Assembly: GCA_041665145.1 (NCBI GenBank)
Contig: JBAYJK010000002.1
Location: forward strand, 40,339 to 104,338
Length of the DNA stretch: 64,000 bases
Source: Patescibacteria group bacterium
GTDB lineage: Bacteria; Patescibacteriota; Microgenomatia; UBA1406
Direction of reading: 5' to 3'
The position numbers were made by a program, and so were the translations under genes. Position 1 is the stretch's first letter. Each line of letters opens with the position of its first letter. The notes beneath the pieces were generated by a model. The model searched no databases and was not told the origin of the DNA. It saw nothing but the letters and a program-made list of their open reading frames with translations. Shown piece by piece: positions 8,505 to 55,630 of this stretch.

Positions 8505-8864
8505 TTACTTTTTTGCGCAATCTATACACAGCACTGCAAGCGGATTTGTGGTTAGTCTGTCTGTGTTGATCATTTTTCCGCACTTCTTACAATATCCGTA
8601 CGAACCGTTGGCGATGCGCTTTAAAACTTCATCGATCTCCGTTATACGTTTTTTTAAGGATTCGCGATTTGCCTCGGTCTGTTCATGTGCCATCTCTTCC
8701 CTAACCTCGTTAATCACGTCCGCATTATCATTCGCGTGATCAGGGTCCTTAAATGGATCGCCTTCATCAAGCTGTTTAATTCGTTTGGCAATATGGGCAC
8801 GTTCTTTTTTAAAAAATTCCTCAACCTCGCTCAGCACTTTTTTAGGATACCCTGCGTCGTTCAT
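8505..8864 (-). CDS. DksA/TraR family C4-type zinc-finger protein
   Basis: 119 aa. The C-terminal CKKCGKMINTDRLTTNPLAVLCIDCAKK follows an acidic helical region. Confidence 0.8.
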   Translation of the reverse strand: MNDAGYPKKVLSEVEEFFKKERAHIAKRIKQLDEGDPFKDPDHANDNADVINEVREEMAHEQTEANRESLKKRITEIDEVLKRIANGSYGYCKKCGKMINTDRLTTNPLAVLCIDCAKK

Positions 8865-9568
8865 TTAGATATCTTGTGTGAACTAATAATAACTACCGCT
8901 GACCAGATCACTACATAAGCCAGAACTGCGAGCATAATCATTTGCTCAATTCCGATGAGTCGAAAGCCAAGTAAGTATACCGTGTCGCGTTTAAAAAAGT
9001 CAATAATGAAAAGTGTCAACGCTTCAAAGCCGACAAAGCAGTTGAACAGCAATGCCGATGGCAATTTGTTCTGCTTGGAAATCCGGAGAATATAGTATGC
9101 ACACCCCGCTCCCACAAACATGATGACAAATCCGTACAGGTAGAAAGGTGCAAATGAAGTAATGAAAGACAATACGAGTAACATCAGTTTGGCAACAAAC
9201 AAAGGCATAATAAGCAGCTTAATAATCAGCAGGTAGTCGAGTTTATTCTTGTGAGAGTAAATCCATAAACTTCCCAAGAAACCGAGAAGAAATGCGCTTT
9301 CAGTAACTCCGGGATACACAAAGAGCAAAACAGTTTTTATCCACGCACTGCTGAAATCTGAGAGATGCAATAAAATAAACGCTACCCTGCCGAGCAATAA
9401 CCCGATCACACTCGAAGCGAAAAGAATGTCGATCATCTTTTCTTCCTGTAAGGCGCTGCGCTTTAATTCTCTCCAGAATAAAAAGAGAACAACGGTCAAC
9501 ATGACAACGACGCCGACACCATATACATATAAGTGCAAACCGAGATACGTCGCCAAGACTTGTTTCAT
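8861..9568 (-). CDS. polytopic membrane protein, Lgt-like N-terminal region (divergent)
   Basis: 235 aa. The N-terminal pattern LHLYVYGVGVVVMLTVVLFLFWRELKR...IGLLLGRVAFIL resembles prolipoprotein diacylglyceryl transferase. I cannot see the later Lgt G-rich motifs. Confidence 0.35.
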   Translation of the reverse strand: MKQVLATYLGLHLYVYGVGVVVMLTVVLFLFWRELKRSALQEEKMIDILFASSVIGLLLGRVAFILLHLSDFSSAWIKTVLLFVYPGVTESAFLLGFLGSLWIYSHKNKLDYLLIIKLLIMPLFVAKLMLLVLSFITSFAPFYLYGFVIMFVGAGCAYYILRISKQNKLPSALLFNCFVGFEALTLFIIDFFKRDTVYLLGFRLIGIEQMIMLAVLAYVVIWSAVVIISSHKISK

Positions 9569-9594
9569 AGGTTATAATTATACAGGAAAAACAA

Positions 9595-9689
9595 GACTTA
9601 AGCCCAAATAATTAAGATTAAATAAAGCTTGAATATTTAAGCTTAAGGCTTTATTAAATATTTTTACTTAAGTATTTAGCCTTAATCTT
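9595..9689. repeat. CTTAAG/GCTTAA-type word-repeat array
   Basis: cttaagcccaaataattaagattaaataaagcttgaatatttaagcttaaggctttattaaat... The same word family occurs at 35095-35165. Confidence 0.7.
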
Positions 9690-9759
9690 GCCGGGGTGGT
9701 GAAACCCATGTACCACGTTGGGTACAGGGCCGTGAACCCCAGTGGTTCACGGTGGTATA
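9690..9759 (+). pseudogene. 5' fragment of tRNA-Leu (positions 1-22) split by a 48-nt structured insert in the D-loop
   Basis: gccggggtggtgaaa (15/15 identical to 10025-10039), then cccatGTACCacgttGGTACagggCCGTGAACCccagtGGTTCACGG, then tggtata (7/7 identical to the tRNA). Confidence 0.6.
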
Positions 9760-9764
9760 GCAAT

Positions 9765-10022
9765 ATGTATTATGTATACGTTTTGAAATCTGTTGTAGAT
9801 GACAGAATCTATATAGGACAGACAGGAGACCTTAGAAGAAGGTTTAAGGAGCACCAAGCGGGCCGTGACTATACGACCAAAAAATATGGTGGTGTCTGTC
9901 TTATATTTTACGAAGCCTTTTACAGTAAAATTGATAGTATACGCAGAGAAAAGTACTTTAAAACAAGTAAAGGAAAAGTAAGCTTGAGATTGATTACACG
10001 AGAGTCAATGATACACAAGTAA
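9765..10022 (+). CDS. small GIY-YIG (URI-domain) nuclease family protein
   Basis: MYYVYVLKSVVDDRIYIGQTGDLRRRFKEHQAG... carries the GIY-YIG signature. I start at the ATG at 9765, because the track start at 9696 would read through the tRNA fragment. Confidence 0.8.
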   Translation: MYYVYVLKSVVDDRIYIGQTGDLRRRFKEHQAGRDYTTKKYGGVCLIFYEAFYSKIDSIRREKYFKTSKGKVSLRLITRESMIHK

Positions 10023-10024
10023 TT

Positions 10025-10108
10025 GCCGGGGTGGTGAAATGGTATACACGCAGGTTTTAGGAACCTGTGACTGCTAAAGTCGTGCGGGTTCAAGTCCCGC
10101 TCCCGGCA
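10025..10108 (+). tRNA. tRNA-Leu (anticodon TAG), type II with a long variable arm; CCA not encoded
   Basis: Acceptor gccgggg/tcccggc, anticodon arm caggt-ttTAGga-acctg, variable arm tgactgctaaagtcgt, T arm gcggg-ttcaagt-cccgc. Confidence 0.9.
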
Positions 10109-10123
10109 CAGAAGTAACTATCT

Positions 10124-10184
10124 GGTTCAAGCCTGCCCGCAACGCCGCAGCGTAGCGAGGCGAGCGGGTCCTCTCCCCGGCACA
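10124..10184 (+). pseudogene. 3' fragment of tRNA-Leu (T-loop plus acceptor end) split by a GC-rich palindromic insert (family B)
   Basis: ggttcaagcc, then tgcccgcaacgccgcagcgtagcgaggcgagcggg, then tcctctccccggcaca. The end matches the tRNA 3' end ctcccggcaca, and ccccggc is a perfect complement of the 5' gccgggg. Confidence 0.55.
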
Positions 10185-10218
10185 AGAAATGCTTAGTGAG
10201 TACTCGAGCTGGGTAGAA

Positions 10219-11562
10219 TTAAAAATTAGCTTCCCGTTCTTCCACTTCAAAGAATCGTAATTGATCACCTTTGAACATAAAGTCTACTTCACCTGTAGGT
10301 CCGTTCCGGTGCTTTGCAATTCCGACTTTGATAGTTTTTCTTCCTTCTGGCATCAGTTCGTCATCATCATCGGTCCGATACAAAAACATGACAATATCGG
10401 CATCCTGCTCTATTGCACCGGAATCACGAAGGTCGGAAAGTTGCGGTTTCTTCTCACCGCGTTGCTCAACAGACCGAGAGAGCTGAGAGAGAGCAATTAC
10501 CGGAACCTTCAATTCACGTGCAATATTTTTCAGCGATTGCGAAACATACGAAACTTCCTGCACACGGGAATCTGTTTTTTTACCCGGATCCGCAAGCTGA
10601 AGATAGTCCATGATAATAAGGTCAAGTTTTTTTTCAAATTGAAGTTTGCGGGCCTTTGTCCGCATTTCATGCACGGTAATGCCGGGAGTATCATCAATAT
10701 ACAGGTTCGCGTCAGCCAACCGTCCCAAAGCTTCCGTCACTCTTCCCATTTCATCAGGGTTGAGTTTCCCAGTCCGTAATCGCCATGCGTCAATTTGAGC
10801 TTCCATTACTAATAAACGATCAACAAGTTCTTCCTTACTCATTTCGAGAGAGAAAAACCCGACAGATTTCTTCTCCTCCAAACACAAATAATTCGCGATG
10901 TTGAGAGCAAATGTTGTTTTACCGATACTCGGGCGGGCGGCAATCACGATAAGGTTTGAGGGGTTTAACCCAGCCAGTTTATTGTCCAGCTTATGGAACC
11001 CCGTGGCAACACCCCGCATACCGGCACCGCTTTTGATTGCTTCTTCTAAACGCTCATAGCTCGATGTCAGAATGTCTTTTATAGGAATAAAATCCCGTTT
11101 AACATTTTCCTGGGTGAGAGAAAATATGGTTCCTTCAGCTTTGGACAACAATTCATTGACATTTCCTTCATCGTTGAACGCTGAACGGACAAGATCCGAT
11201 CCGACCGTAATAATCTGCCGCTTAAGTGCGGATTCACGTACTACCTTTGCATAGTTTTCAATGTTCGCGCTCGTCGGTACACTTTCAATAAGCTGGGAAA
11301 AATATTCTTTTCCACCGGTATCTTTCAGCGTTTTTTCTTTCTTCAATTCATTTGAAAGAGTAAGTATGTCTATGGGCTGATTTTCTCGGTACAAAGCGAG
11401 CATTCCTTCATAAATCAGCTGGTTCTCCCTAAAATAGAAATGAGCTGATTTCAAAATCTCAGATACTAACGAGATTGAGGATGGGTCAATAAGTACGGAG
11501 CCTAAAACCGATTGCTCGGCTTCCTGGTTGTGCGGTGGCAGTTGTGTGTTTTCGTTGGGCAT
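10219..11562 (-). CDS. dnaB: replicative DNA helicase DnaB
   Basis: 447 aa. PPHNQEAEQSVLGSVL N-terminus, Walker A ARPSIGKTTFALNIA, and IIMDYLQL, SQLSR motifs. Confidence 0.95.
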   Translation of the reverse strand: MPNENTQLPPHNQEAEQSVLGSVLIDPSSISLVSEILKSAHFYFRENQLIYEGMLALYRENQPIDILTLSNELKKEKTLKDTGGKEYFSQLIESVPTSANIENYAKVVRESALKRQIITVGSDLVRSAFNDEGNVNELLSKAEGTIFSLTQENVKRDFIPIKDILTSSYERLEEAIKSGAGMRGVATGFHKLDNKLAGLNPSNLIVIAARPSIGKTTFALNIANYLCLEEKKSVGFFSLEMSKEELVDRLLVMEAQIDAWRLRTGKLNPDEMGRVTEALGRLADANLYIDDTPGITVHEMRTKARKLQFEKKLDLIIMDYLQLADPGKKTDSRVQEVSYVSQSLKNIARELKVPVIALSQLSRSVEQRGEKKPQLSDLRDSGAIEQDADIVMFLYRTDDDDELMPEGRKTIKVGIAKHRNGPTGEVDFMFKGDQLRFFEVEEREANF

Positions 11563-15580: not shown

Positions 15581-15607
15581 ACAAGGCTACTACTGATTAA
15601 GTTTGGT

Positions 15608-17218
15608 TTACCGTCGCACCGCCGACAGATACATCTGATGCACCGGCGTGTTGTACCAGGTGAACGGGATATACCCGTTCGGGCCGATCGACGCTGCGAA
15701 CCAACCGGAGGGCCGGCAGACTGCCTGACCGCCGGCGATAATGGTCGTCCGGAACTGTGTGGTGACCGTGCCTTCAGGCGGCACAACCACATAGAGTTCC
15801 AGGAAGTGCGCCTGCCCGCATCCGTTCGGGCTCGGAGAGGCCGGCGGATCCAACAAAGTCACGCTGGTTGTAATCTCTGTCCGGTTGTACACAGTAGCCG
15901 TCATCGTGACAGTGCCCGAGTACCCCAAGCTTGGGGCCCCGAACACCGGGACATTGACGCCCACCAGTGGCCCGAGGGGCAGCGATTCAAATGTAACCAC
16001 CCACTGCCCTGCTTCCCTGGCCATGTACCCGAACTCGATCGTAGTCGCTGTCGTCGCACACGCGACATGCGCCGGCATTACCTCAGCGACCGTACTGGTG
16101 AATTCCCAGCCTGCCGCCACATGCGTGGCATCATGCAGGCTCCAATCTTCAAGCACTGGCCCTGCGGAACCAACTAGCGGCTCCCCGTTAGTGAAGAGCG
16201 CATACTGCCCACAAGCGCTCACATTGTAAGCCTCCCCACGTACTTGAGGCTTGTTTGTCAGTTCCAATTTCCACGCCTGACTCTTGAACTCTTCGGACAA
16301 CACCTTGTTCGGACCAATTTCACCGAACGTGCCCCACACACCACCTTGGCGGGTGGAAAGCCACAGCTTGCCGGCAAACGTAACAGAGATACAGCGCCCG
16401 AGTAGGCACTGGCCTTCTCCCAGCCCATCCGGCAAAGCCGGGACGGGCTGGACCATGTCCCGCGACTTGCCCGATTCGAGCATGTGGGAGATGTGGACGA
16501 CCTGCCGAGTGCTGATGTTGCTGACGTACGTCAGCCCCACTCCGAGCTCAGTCGTCTCTGCGAGCCGCGGCATGAGTTGCCCGGCGGGACCGGACGGGTC
16601 GGCAGCTTTCTCGGCCGACCAGCTTCCATCAAGCTCGCGGACACGGTATCGCACCGTTCCGTCCAAGGAGTACGCGACGACCACGCGGCCGTCGGTCAAC
16701 TGCAAAGCGCTCGTCCCTTCCGGCAGATTATCATTCATACTACCGGACAGTTTCGTGAGCAACCAACTTCCGTCGCCAATTTCGGCCGTCCAAAGACCGA
16801 TGTCCGGCGAGCTACCCTTCGCCAGCACGAACAAAATCGGCTGACAATTCTGGAAAGCAATTGCTTCGAGCGAAACATTGAACTCATAGTATAGGGGGGT
16901 AATTGGGGCCAACCCAAATTCTCCCTTGTGAAAAACGGCCGGAAATGTCCGGCCCGCCGTAACGTTCGTGACTCCGCCCCAAACGCCTGCGCAGGCGTCG
17001 GCGGCCAGGATCGGTTGCACTTGATCCCCTTCTTGGGCGTCCAGCCCGGGGGCCACAGGCAACTGCAACATGAGCGGCTTATTCGGCGCCGCCACAGCCG
17101 TCGCGACCGAAGCCGCAAGATTGCACAGCTTGAACCCGATAACTAACGCCAGCACCGCTGGCGCCGTGAGGATTAACCGCCCCCACCGCGTTCGAACAAG
17201 AAACCGTCCAAGTCCCAT
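15608..17218 (-). CDS. high-GC foreign-looking gene: N-terminally anchored/secreted protein with Asp-box-like (DGSW) motifs, possible beta-propeller
   Basis: 536 aa with a hydrophobic N-terminus GRLILTAPAVLALVIGF. IGDGSWLL and ELDGSWSAEK resemble BNR/Asp boxes. Hand counts of 60-nt samples inside gave 60%, 63% and 75% GC, against 38-52% in flanking genes. AGGAGG lies 4 nt upstream of the ATG. Confidence 0.75.
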   Translation of the reverse strand: MGLGRFLVRTRWGRLILTAPAVLALVIGFKLCNLAASVATAVAAPNKPLMLQLPVAPGLDAQEGDQVQPILAADACAGVWGGVTNVTAGRTFPAVFHKGEFGLAPITPLYYEFNVSLEAIAFQNCQPILFVLAKGSSPDIGLWTAEIGDGSWLLTKLSGSMNDNLPEGTSALQLTDGRVVVAYSLDGTVRYRVRELDGSWSAEKAADPSGPAGQLMPRLAETTELGVGLTYVSNISTRQVVHISHMLESGKSRDMVQPVPALPDGLGEGQCLLGRCISVTFAGKLWLSTRQGGVWGTFGEIGPNKVLSEEFKSQAWKLELTNKPQVRGEAYNVSACGQYALFTNGEPLVGSAGPVLEDWSLHDATHVAAGWEFTSTVAEVMPAHVACATTATTIEFGYMAREAGQWVVTFESLPLGPLVGVNVPVFGAPSLGYSGTVTMTATVYNRTEITTSVTLLDPPASPSPNGCGQAHFLELYVVVPPEGTVTTQFRTTIIAGGQAVCRPSGWFAASIGPNGYIPFTWYNTPVHQMYLSAVRR

Positions 17219-17294
17219 AGGACCTCCTGTATGTTGGCTCTAAACCTTAAAATCCGGTTTATGCCATTAAACAGAAAGAAATAACTATCCCTGG

Positions 17295-17612: not shown

Positions 17613-17686
17613 TGGAGCGGGATGCGGGAGTCGAACCCGCCATATCACTTTGGAAAAGTGAAGTTATACCGATTAACTAATCCCGC
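17613..17686 (-). tRNA. tRNA-Gly (anticodon TCC), CCA encoded
   Basis: gcgggat-ta-gttaatcggtataac-t-tcact-ttTCCaa-agtga-tatg-gcggg-ttcgact-cccgc-atcccgc-t-cca. The 3' end is part of a perfect 13-bp palindrome (17589-17619). Confidence 0.9.
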
Positions 17687-18936: not shown

Positions 18937-19057
18937 GCCCGGGCTATGACCTATTGTCCCAGTCAGTTGGACTGACGAGTATCGTTGGCGCTAACCTGTT
19001 TCACGGCCCTGTTCGGAATGGGAAGGGGTGGGTCCAAGTCGCACAAATAACCAAGGC
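18937..19057 (-). rRNA. rrf: 5S ribosomal RNA (ends approximate, +/-5 nt)
   Basis: The minus strand contains ...cccaccccttcccattccgaacagggccgtgaaac...gcgccaacgatac..., matching the universal 5S loop B/C region CCCAUxCCGAAC...GUGAAAC. Helix I pairs gccttgg with cccgggc. Confidence 0.8.
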
Positions 19058-40153: not shown

Positions 40154-40156
40154 TTG

Positions 40157-40229
40157 AGCGGCGGACGGGATTTGAACCCGCGACCTCCTGCTTGGGAAGC
40201 AGGCATTCTACCAACTGAACTACCGCCGC
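40157..40229 (-). tRNA. tRNA-Gly (anticodon CCC), CCA not encoded
   Basis: gcggcgg-ta-gttcagttggtagaat-g-cctgc-ttCCCaa-gcagg-aggtc-gcggg-ttcaaat-cccgt-ccgccgc-t. Confidence 0.9.
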
Positions 40230-55551: not shown

Positions 55552-55556
55552 CGCGG

Positions 55557-55630
55557 TCGGAGTGGGCGGACTTGAACCGCCGACCTCTACGTCCCGAACG
55601 TAGCGTTCTAGCCATCTGAACTACACTCCG
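55557..55630 (-). tRNA. tRNA-Pro (anticodon CGG), CCA not encoded
   Basis: cggagtg-ta-gttcagatggctagaac-g-ctacg-ttCGGga-cgtag-aggtc-ggcgg-ttcaagt-ccgcc-cactccg-a. Confidence 0.9.

Follow-up and report, generated by a model that had tools for sequence, protein, structure and literature searches.

A GIY-YIG gene and an intact tRNA-Leu gene nested between tRNA-Leu fragments: a probable member of a family of tRNA-targeting selfish cassettes in Patescibacteria and other bacteria

Genes of GIY-YIG nucleases residing among tRNA genes are known from T4-like phages, in which one of the free-standing GIY-YIG homing endonucleases, SegB, is encoded in the T4 tRNA gene cluster (PMC2330249; PMC13096335). 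Here, we describe a bacterial locus of a related appearance, found in a 64-kb window (the whole stretch of DNA that was analysed) of a metagenome-assembled genome (MAG) of Patescibacteria, also called the Candidate Phyla Radiation (CPR), with a genomic GC content of ~43%. In the interval 9690–10184 of this window, an open reading frame (ORF) for an 85-aa GIY-YIG protein and an intact tRNA-Leu(TAG) gene are nested between a 5' and a 3' fragment of tRNA-Leu, each of which is broken in a loop by a GC-rich hairpin insert. Most probably, the interval is a single representative of a widespread family of selfish cassettes, which use tRNA genes as their targets and restore the tRNA that they disrupt. 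As in the case of SegB, the GIY-YIG gene lies among tRNA genes and presumably breaks alleles that lack it, to be copied in with flanking tRNA sequence. However, SegB-type enzymes have a C-terminal DNA-binding domain, whereas the window protein is a bare catalytic domain, and neither a conserved double hairpin, nor nesting within a tRNA gene, nor the duplication of tRNA fragments has been described for the Seg genes.

Another system that the locus resembles is that of the Allomyces mitochondrial double-hairpin elements (DHEs). In the work of Paquin et al. from 1994 and 2000, these elements were reportedly described, together with a mobile GIY-YIG ORF carrying a replacement 3' end of atp6. The mobility of DHEs is cited in PMC7218506. 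Similarly to them, the double hairpin of our locus is G+C-rich, consists of two adjacent stem-loops in an A+T-richer genome, and is optional between relatives. Moreover, similarly to the Allomyces ORF, a mobile endonuclease would bring in a replacement gene segment and leave the resident piece as a pseudogene fragment. In contrast to our locus, DHEs reside in fungal mitochondria, where they target protein genes, rRNA genes, and spacers instead of tRNA loops. The features by which DHEs are recognized (a short G+C-rich unit of two stem-loops, present in many copies and optional) are all seen here, but the likeness is structural only and does not imply homology.

The elements of the IS200/IS605 family also use hairpins as cis elements, recognize a short target motif that is complementary to the sequence next to the hairpin, and prefer DNA that can become single-stranded. 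They depend, however, on an HUH Y1 transposase (TnpA) and a covalent intermediate, whereas the only protein encoded here is a hydrolytic GIY-YIG domain. Furthermore, in our locus the ORF is located outside the hairpin unit, the hairpins are on one side only, and the window copy has no guide-like linker. Neither TnpA, alone or with TnpB, nor subterminal hairpins at both ends are present, which places the locus outside this family. Integrative elements with tRNA genes as their targets bring along the part of the gene that they displace, so that the tRNA stays functional, and the displaced ends persist as direct-repeat fragments, as in our locus. Unlike in these elements, no integrase is encoded, the insert is only ~0.4 kb long, a fragment of the 5' end remains as well as one of the 3' end, and the junctions in the loops are marked by hairpins. 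Thus, the combination of a tyrosine or serine recombinase with tRNA-end repeats, by which integrase-type islands are recognized, is not found.

By sequence, the window protein represents the same minimal domain as the UPF0213/Slx1-like proteins (1zg2, 1ywl). Slx1 enzymes are structure-specific nucleases, a property that would suit a target made of loops and hairpins. In the literature searched, neither mobility, nor tRNA linkage, nor a hairpin partner of UPF0213 proteins was reported. Likewise, the full-text literature searched, the coverage of which leaves out most subscription journals, contained no account of GIY-YIG ORFs and hairpins that are nested in the tRNA genes of bacteria. By analogy, the putative cassette resembles known selfish endonuclease cassettes that restore the gene they disrupt. 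What is unusual about it is the choice of tRNA loops as targets, the nuclease reduced to its catalytic domain, the dyad symmetry of the double hairpin, and the linker complementary to the target; any of these could be mechanistically new.

Anatomy of the locus and the origin of its tRNA pieces

The interval is flanked by lgt (8861–9568) and dnaB (10219–11562), both on the minus strand, while the module is on the plus strand. It begins with tRNA-Leu positions 1–15 (gccggggtggtgaaa, 9690–9704), which include the 5' strands of the acceptor stem and the D-stem as well as the start of the D-loop. In the D-loop, this fragment is interrupted by a conserved 48-nt double hairpin (9705–9752; the first hairpin at 9705–9729, the second at 9730–9752), and it continues behind the insert as tggtata, tRNA positions 16–22 (9753–9759), which matches 10040–10046 exactly. 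With its 2-nt leader included, the sequence TTGCCGGGGTGGTGAAA is an exact 17-nt repeat, found at 9688 and at 10023 (10023–10039), and the match ends at tRNA position 15. The outer 5' fragment co-varies with the local tRNA in the relatives L001 and L002. In relatives, too, the continuation of the tRNA behind the hairpin is short (~5–12 nt) and is followed by a short spacer and ATG; in the window, 5 bases separate tggtata from the ORF start. On this comparison, the left junction of the putative cassette falls after position 9759.

The stand-alone GIY-YIG ORF (9765–10022, plus strand; Pfam PF01541, E=5.9e-14) ends 2 nt upstream of the intact tRNA-Leu(TAG) gene, which was called at 10025–10109 by ARAGORN and scored 56.2 bits with the Rfam tRNA model (10025–10108). 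The first-pass annotation of this DNA, made from the sequence alone, had proposed exactly this order: a tRNA-Leu 5' fragment of 15 and 7 nt split by a 48-nt double hairpin, then an 85-aa GIY-YIG ORF, then an intact tRNA-Leu(TAG). Each of these elements was confirmed, the latter two by Pfam, ARAGORN, and Rfam. Behind the intact gene, a 14-nt spacer (10110–10123, plus strand) leads to the outer 3' fragment. The first part of the latter, GGTTCAAG (10124–10131), represents the end of the T-stem 5' strand and the T-loop; it is an exact 8-nt repeat of 10087–10094 and also matches the T-loop of the tRNA of a relative. Its second part, gtcctctccccggcaca (10168–10184), includes the last bases of the T-loop, the 3' strands of the T-stem and the acceptor stem, and the discriminator with 2 further nt. 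Taken together, the repeats on the 3' side in the window are one exact 8-mer and one exact 9-mer. The two parts are separated by a GC-rich hairpin in the T-loop (10132–10167), with a folding energy of −23 kcal/mol when flanks are included. This 3' fragment had been described as split by a 35-nt palindrome. A split fragment is indeed present, but the insert has 36 nt (or 35 and one ambiguous G), and the palindrome is imperfect. The T-loop hairpin is of a different type than the double hairpin, and no second copy of it was found in the window or in any locus retrieved; comparable T-loop hairpins precede the trailing tRNA fragments in L006, L053, L058, and L078.

The outer acceptor halves, gccgggg and ccccggc, are perfectly complementary, while the intact gene has a G-U at pair 7-66 of its acceptor stem, as had been noted from the sequence. 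The outer pieces lack tRNA positions 23–52 and therefore could not form a tRNA even if the inserts were removed. Only the inner tRNA was called by ARAGORN and Rfam, and the outer pieces scored no match. A group I or other intron or ribozyme was rejected as an explanation of the inserts, as no Rfam family except tRNA scored meaningfully in 9500–10300 even at E<=10, and as the middle of the outer tRNA is missing. An archaeal-type intron with a bulge-helix-bulge motif was rejected as well, as the inserts are plain hairpins within truncated tRNA copies. An assembly artefact was dismissed because the identical sequence was recovered in two independent assemblies, L086 (ENA) and L087 (Logan, another run).

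The comparison of this site with its orthologs, in search of empty and occupied variants, indicated which of the tRNA pieces are resident. In the relative represented by contig L169 (DnaB 91% identical, MBL-fold protein 76% identical), the 3' part of a tRNA-Leu(TAG) gene runs directly into the dnaB stop codon. In contig L084, from the same sample, the lgt start is followed by 26 nt and then by tRNA positions 1–34, without any hairpin. Through an overlap of 14 nt, the two contigs can be merged into a valid 85-nt tRNA-Leu(TAG) with a perfect acceptor stem. The gene identities of both contigs are compatible with a single genome, given that the evolution of lgt is much faster than that of dnaB, as seen in a relative in which both genes are on a single contig (L170). 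Most simply, the site of L084/L169 would be a single uninterrupted tRNA gene between lgt and dnaB, i.e., an empty site.

The last part of the outer 3' fragment (10168–10184) is identical to the end of the L169 tRNA up to the discriminator (16/16) and to the 3' end of the L001 tRNA-Leu (17/17). Thus, its similarity to tRNA, which could have been suspected to be fortuitous, is not due to chance, and the outer 3' fragment is the original 3' end of the resident tRNA. The spacer at 10110–10123 is missing from L169, in which dnaB follows the tRNA directly, and presumably represents the right-hand end of the imported segment. The inner tRNA is of the resident type through position 45, except for a 1-nt indel in the D-loop, which it has in common with the occupied relative L002. 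In contrast, it differs from the resident type in the variable arm, in the T stem, and at position 66, and the latter difference accounts for its G7-U66 wobble. As judged by this pattern, no less than the 3' third of the functional tRNA probably came from elsewhere, and the inner tRNA would be an imported or chimeric replacement. As regards presence and absence and the co-conversion of flanking sequence, which are marks of homing, the locus offers a probable empty site that spans two contigs, and the chimeric or foreign 3' third of the inner tRNA is consistent with co-conversion. The proposal of the first-pass annotation that an ancestral tRNA-Leu was invaded by a cassette with a homing-type nuclease and a replacement tRNA gains support from the probable empty site, the resident outer 3' end, and the recurrence of nesting in relatives (see below), while homing and cleavage themselves are what we infer.

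Duplicated tRNA ends are also the classical trace of integrative elements, and the fragments could be scars of attachment sites, left by the integration and excision of an island or a phage at tRNA-Leu with the aid of an integrase, with the GIY-YIG ORF as incidental cargo. The interval between lgt and dnaB is indeed an insertion hot spot. In yet another relative (L168, 3007–5006, and L085, 1–92; DnaB 89% identical; SRR22388054), the tRNA in this interval is replaced by genes for a PLD-like protein, an HTH protein, and a helicase/caspase-like protein, which are unrelated to those of the window. A different GC-rich hairpin adjoins lgt in that relative. However, no integrase or recombinase ORF is present between lgt and dnaB in the window, where the entire insert has only ~420 nt. 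Moreover, integrase scars duplicate the 3' end of a tRNA without the insertion of hairpins into loops, and the hairpin-ORF-tRNA module itself is conserved across phyla. An origin from attachment sites is very improbable.

The GIY-YIG protein and its association with tRNA genes

The window protein belongs to the GIY-YIG superfamily (52.6 bits with PF01541, against a cut-off of 22.6), and its residues Y3, Y5, Y16, G18, R26, H30, and E62 do not vary among 30 relatives. Behind the catalytic domain, the ORF stops, with no DNA-binding domain following. Hence, it does not have the architecture of GIY-YIG homing endonucleases such as I-TevI, Seg, or Mob, in which an N-terminal GIY-YIG domain is joined to a C-terminal DNA-binding domain, and its score with the model of group I intron endonucleases (TIGR01453) was below threshold (20.8 bits against a cut-off of 56). 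Among the proteins of known structure, the family profile matched 1zg2 (E=1.7e-10) and 1ywl (E=4.9e-7), which are UPF0213 proteins of the BH0048/EF2693 type, and, less well, the SLX1 structure 6seh (4e-3). With its single domain in the range of ~80–110 aa, the protein fits the UPF0213 or stand-alone Slx1-like minimal GIY-YIG type. UPF0213 was grouped with prokaryotic Slx1-like minimal domains by Dunin-Horkawicz et al. (PMC1564403). A longer version of the ORF, of 108 aa, which would start from GTG at 9696 and run through the hairpin, was rejected, as the hairpin shows compensatory pairing and the homologues start with MYYVY.

Relatives of the ORF are encoded in at least 545 loci, as found by a scan of GTDB representatives with one genome per species. 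Their hosts are CPR groups, Omnitrophota, Planctomycetota, delta-proteobacterial MAGs, Kazan, and others. No phage homologues were detected at E<=1e-5. The three closest relatives of the ORF (87%, 77%, and 66% identity) are arranged in the same order as in the window, with a 5' copy of the tRNA-Leu found at that locus, then a double hairpin, then the ORF, and finally an intact tRNA-Leu. Their isoacceptors vary (GAG and CAA alongside TAG), as do their neighbour genes. The similarity between the window and L001 amounts to 79% over 434 nt, beginning 8 nt ahead of the 5' fragment and reaching as far as the 3' end of the tRNA.

A set of 83 loci with ORF relatives was examined for adjacent tRNA genes and hairpins. 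A tRNA gene on the same strand was adjacent to the ORF in 56 of them, within 80 nt downstream of the stop codon (38 loci, with gaps of mostly 0–15 nt) or within 200 nt upstream of the start codon (21 loci). A hairpin of the window type ended 8–99 nt before the start codon in 45 loci, and many of the remaining 38 had other GC-rich hairpin pairs at the same position. In the neighbour-joining tree, the ORFs grouped according to the identity of the adjacent tRNA, with a Leu clade, to which the window ORF belongs, a Gln clade, and Ser groups. In nine loci (L008, L010, L011, L013, L020, L021, L027, L041, and L057), the GIY-YIG frame has no stop codon before the tRNA and overlaps the intact tRNA gene by 10–53 nt.

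The nesting was recurrent as well. Of the 36 loci that have a tRNA behind the ORF, 12 had a trailing tRNA 3' fragment, usually starting from the T-loop and preceded by a hairpin, and the window has one in addition to these. The upstream fragment is identical in sequence to the intact tRNA in the window, in L001, L002, and L005, and in several Gln loci, and it derives from a different tRNA-Leu than the intact gene in L045, L052, L042, L026, and L003. In L003, a second tRNA-Leu 5' fragment with a different double-hairpin insert (gacgtcaaacgtc / gacgcgtttgacgcgtc) is present upstream of the main one (880–990), which suggests that the second fragment is older and that one locus was invaded successively.

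An explanation with no mobile element has to be weighed against these data. According to it, a resident housekeeping nuclease gene of the UPF0213 type would be co-transcribed with tRNAs, the hairpin would be an element of RNA, acting in the 5'-UTR or in processing, and the tRNA pieces would be the debris of local duplication and decay at a locus prone to recombination. UPF0213 proteins are common in bacteria as products of single-copy genes and are not known to be mobile. The location of the hairpin at a fixed short distance before the start codon would also suit such an explanation, as would the identity between the upstream fragment and the intact tRNA in many loci. However, close relatives differ in the occupancy of the same site, and the same module is present in unrelated gene neighbourhoods with different isoacceptors. 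The outer fragments whose tRNA type differs from that of the inner gene are also difficult to reconcile with local duplication. In further disagreement with it, hairpin units without any ORF exist, and only in tRNA sequence, and the rarity of G-U pairs in the hairpin, with its nearly equal scores on both strands, is atypical of a structure that functions only as RNA (see below). We consider the non-mobile explanation rather improbable.

The double hairpin and the sites of its insertion

The 48-nt insert of the window folds as two hairpins of ~9 bp each and has a GC content of 60%, as compared with ~43% for the genome. A covariance model built from 22 aligned hairpin instances of relatives (R1) gave a single match in the window, at 9705–9752 (59.8 bits, E=3.6e-15). 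Compensatory changes were found at 11 of 17 base pairs in these 22 relatives, and the pairing in the two stems reached 95% and 97.5%, with very few G-U pairs, i.e., it was almost purely of the Watson–Crick type. On the consensus, the two hairpin loops are reverse complements of each other, and R1 scores were nearly equal on both strands. Since the stems covary and are nearly pure Watson–Crick, the loops are reverse complements, and the scores are equal for both strands, the double hairpin looks like a dyad-symmetric element that acts at the DNA level rather than a fold of RNA only.

In 247 kb around ORF homologues, R1 had 156 matches, with both strands counted, which correspond to ~80 distinct units. 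No matches were found in 391 kb of control loci centred on dnaB, which contained 16 tRNAs. The latter came from a dnaB-based scan of metagenomes; their source organisms are only distant relatives (<=59% identity) with no synteny to the window, and they served solely as a negative control. Within the window, the R1-type hairpin is present at tRNA-Leu only; the other tRNA genes, Gly-TCC (17613–17686), Gly-CCC (40156–40229), and Pro-CGG (55555–55630), have no double hairpin of this type. By its distribution, the double hairpin appears to be a cis element that accompanies the GIY-YIG ORF family.

The mapping of hairpin flanks onto the neighbouring intact tRNA revealed the insertion points. They are in the D-loop (after position 12, 15, or 21), in the anticodon loop (34–36), in the T-loop (at the CG of TTCGA), and directly after the 3' CCA. 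In the 1.5-kb flanks of the loci, we found 36 further hairpin units with no ORF, and 36 of 36 were in tRNA-derived sequence or in arrays that start at a tRNA 3' end. They were located at the CCA end of an intact tRNA, in the loop of a tRNA fragment, or in tandem arrays (L009, L034, and L059), and within one locus they could be found at the CCA ends of several different tRNAs. The arrays of L059 (1256–1485 and 1889–2059) and L009 (671–1426) consist of three to ten double-hairpin units. Their first unit begins precisely at the CCA end of tRNA-Ser, tRNA-Arg, or tRNA-Ala, and a short repeat of the tRNA 3' end follows each unit. The alternative offered in the first-pass annotation, that small GC-rich elements repeatedly hit tRNA loops, is therefore also true, as the double hairpin occurs only in tRNA loops and at tRNA 3' ends.

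Outside the D-loop subtype, the insertions follow a strict rule, X-hp1-X'-hp2-X, where hp1 and hp2 are the two hairpins, X is a duplicated target of 2–4 nt, and X', the linker, is its reverse complement. For X/X'/X, we found ta/ta/ta at Leu-TAA, ca/tg/ca at Leu-CAA, ctg/cag/ctg at Gln-CTG, ttg/caa/ttg at Gln-TTG, cg/cg/cg in the T-loop, and gcca/tggc/gcca at the CCA end. With six such types, the linker clearly co-varies with the target. The D-loop subtype, to which the window belongs with L001, L002, L004, L026, and L056, has neither the target duplication nor the linker. To our knowledge, neither this linker rule nor a fixed linkage of the hairpin to an ORF has been described for DHEs. The Gln linkers, CAG and CAA, are codons, as if they were specifiers of a T-box-like element, but this was rejected, as the linkers of the Leu, T-loop, and CCA-end units (ta, tg, cg, and tggc) correspond to the duplicated target and not to codons.

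The rule would be better explained by transposition than by homing. In such a case, the double hairpin would be a miniature element of single-stranded or cruciform DNA and the GIY-YIG protein its nickase, and the unit would be moved by cut-and-paste or copied into exposed tRNA loops, guided by the pairing of the 2–4 nt linker with the target, as in IS200/IS605. The partial tRNA copies would then result from repair, or would be the sole contexts in which an insertion is survivable, since an insertion in a single-copy tRNA gene is lethal. The tandem arrays and the ORF-less units at the ends of different tRNAs are consistent with such a mechanism, as is the dyad symmetry of stems and loops at the DNA level. 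However, the D-loop subtype of the window does not obey the rule, and the ORF lies outside the duplicated X boundaries. In addition, GIY-YIG enzymes are hydrolytic and strand transfer is not known for them, and the transposition of the hairpin and the ORF alone leaves the foreign 3' third of the inner tRNA and the retained resident 3' end unexplained. Thus, we regard transposition as unlikely, although it is the strongest of the rival explanations, ahead of the non-mobile one. Equally tentative is a more general proposal, in which the double hairpin and the bare GIY-YIG domain would constitute a new class of DNA mobile element. It would recognize structure, such as the extruded loops of tRNA genes in single-stranded or cruciform form, would, in most subtypes, choose its sites by the pairing of the 2–4 nt linker, as a GIY-YIG-based counterpart of guide-directed single-strand transposition, and would drive the horizontal replacement of tRNA genes in reduced genomes.

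A possible course of invasion, its expression, and other features of the window

The interpretation that we favour, a selfish cassette that restores the tRNA, is built on what was observed: the anatomy of the locus, a hairpin that is conserved, covaries, and is specific for tRNA, nesting that recurs between loci, an outer 3' fragment of resident origin, and an inner tRNA that diverges in its 3' third; the activity and target of the nuclease, the route of repair, and the transcript are what we infer from them. The cassette would consist of the dyad-symmetric double hairpin, ~10–30 nt, and the gene of the minimal stand-alone GIY-YIG protein, and, when placed inside a tRNA rather than after a CCA end, it would also have a complete copy of that tRNA behind the ORF. 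In the window, the cassette with its tRNA (~9705–10123) would have replaced the middle of the resident tRNA-Leu(TAG), of which the 5' end (9690–9704 and 9753–9759) and the 3' end (10124–10131 and 10168–10184) survived, each broken in a loop by a GC-rich hairpin. We suppose that the nuclease breaks tRNA genes at loop positions, possibly through the recognition of DNA structure, like Slx1-type enzymes, and that the break is repaired by copying the allele with the cassette, with the conserved tRNA ends as homology arms. Such a repair would leave the extreme 5' and 3' ends of the recipient tRNA outside and the donor or chimeric tRNA inside. Apart from the tRNA ends, there may be no sequences of sufficient conservation to act as arms for recombination in whatever recipient, and the incoming tRNA would keep the host viable, so that an insertion could be tolerated even at a single-copy gene. 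The hairpin unit would be the cis site of the nuclease and could spread alone into those parts of tRNA genes that become single-stranded; evidently, it multiplies by itself at tRNA loops and CCA ends.

Several observations do not fit this interpretation easily. The empty site was pieced together from two contigs with an overlap of no more than 14 nt, and no donor of the 3' third of the inner tRNA was found. The predicted nuclease, an 85-aa GIY-YIG domain with no DNA-binding domain, is unlike the characterised GIY-YIG homing endonucleases. An occupied allele retains an intact tRNA, which is a potential target, as if the cassette did not follow classical homing, in which this is avoided. The identity of the upstream fragment with the intact tRNA in the window and in the other loci named above would fit local duplication equally well. 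Finally, the homology arms (15–36 nt and ~17 nt) are very short for RecA-type recombination between species.

The expression of the cassette would start from the promoter of the resident tRNA and would give one transcript that comprises the fragment, the hairpin, the ORF, and the tRNA; the latter would then be freed by RNase P. A palindromic box, TATAATTATA, is located between lgt and the tRNA locus (9573–9582) and is conserved in L002, L084, and L085. A scan with the promoter consensus gave TCGCCA-17-TATAAT at this box (10/12 match), with TATAAT at 9573–9578, and in L084 the tRNA starts ~20 nt downstream of the box. The box is likely a shared −10 element of divergent promoters, and its plus-strand promoter would drive the entire fragment-hairpin-ORF-tRNA unit. 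Between the box and the 5' tRNA fragment, there is an AT-rich quasi-palindrome of ~100 nt (9586–9687; arms 9593–9619 and 9625–9651, 78% complementary). It is absent in the probable empty-site relative L084, which has 26 nt there, and it is longer and repetitive in L002.

If the cassette interpretation is correct, it would explain a common oddity of annotations, namely, the small ORFs of a 'GIY-YIG nuclease family protein' beside tRNA genes in CPR, Omnitrophota, Planctomycetota, and other uncultivated lineages. It would also imply that, even in tiny genomes, an invasion can split an essential single-copy tRNA gene and either replace it or render it chimeric, with consequences for tRNA phylogeny, tRNA gene counts, and pseudo-tRNA calls. 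The rule of target duplication and linker, in association with a protein that is a catalytic domain only, makes it testable whether a minimal nuclease can gain specificity from DNA structure and a few base pairs, which may be of value for engineering. With the aid of the hairpin model and the tRNA-fragment signature, a census of these elements can be taken, and assembly breaks at tRNA loci can be flagged.

Two other features were seen elsewhere in the window. An island of 1.6 kb (15600–17220) has a GC content of 58–62%, as compared with ~43% for the genome, and is filled by one minus-strand ORF of 536 aa (15608–17218) that has no Pfam match at E<=1e-3 and lies ~400 nt from tRNA-Gly(TCC); this island may have been acquired horizontally. 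In addition, a 5S rRNA gene is present at 18938–19055, and neither 23S nor 16S rRNA was detected in the 64 kb, which indicates that the rRNA genes are unlinked here.

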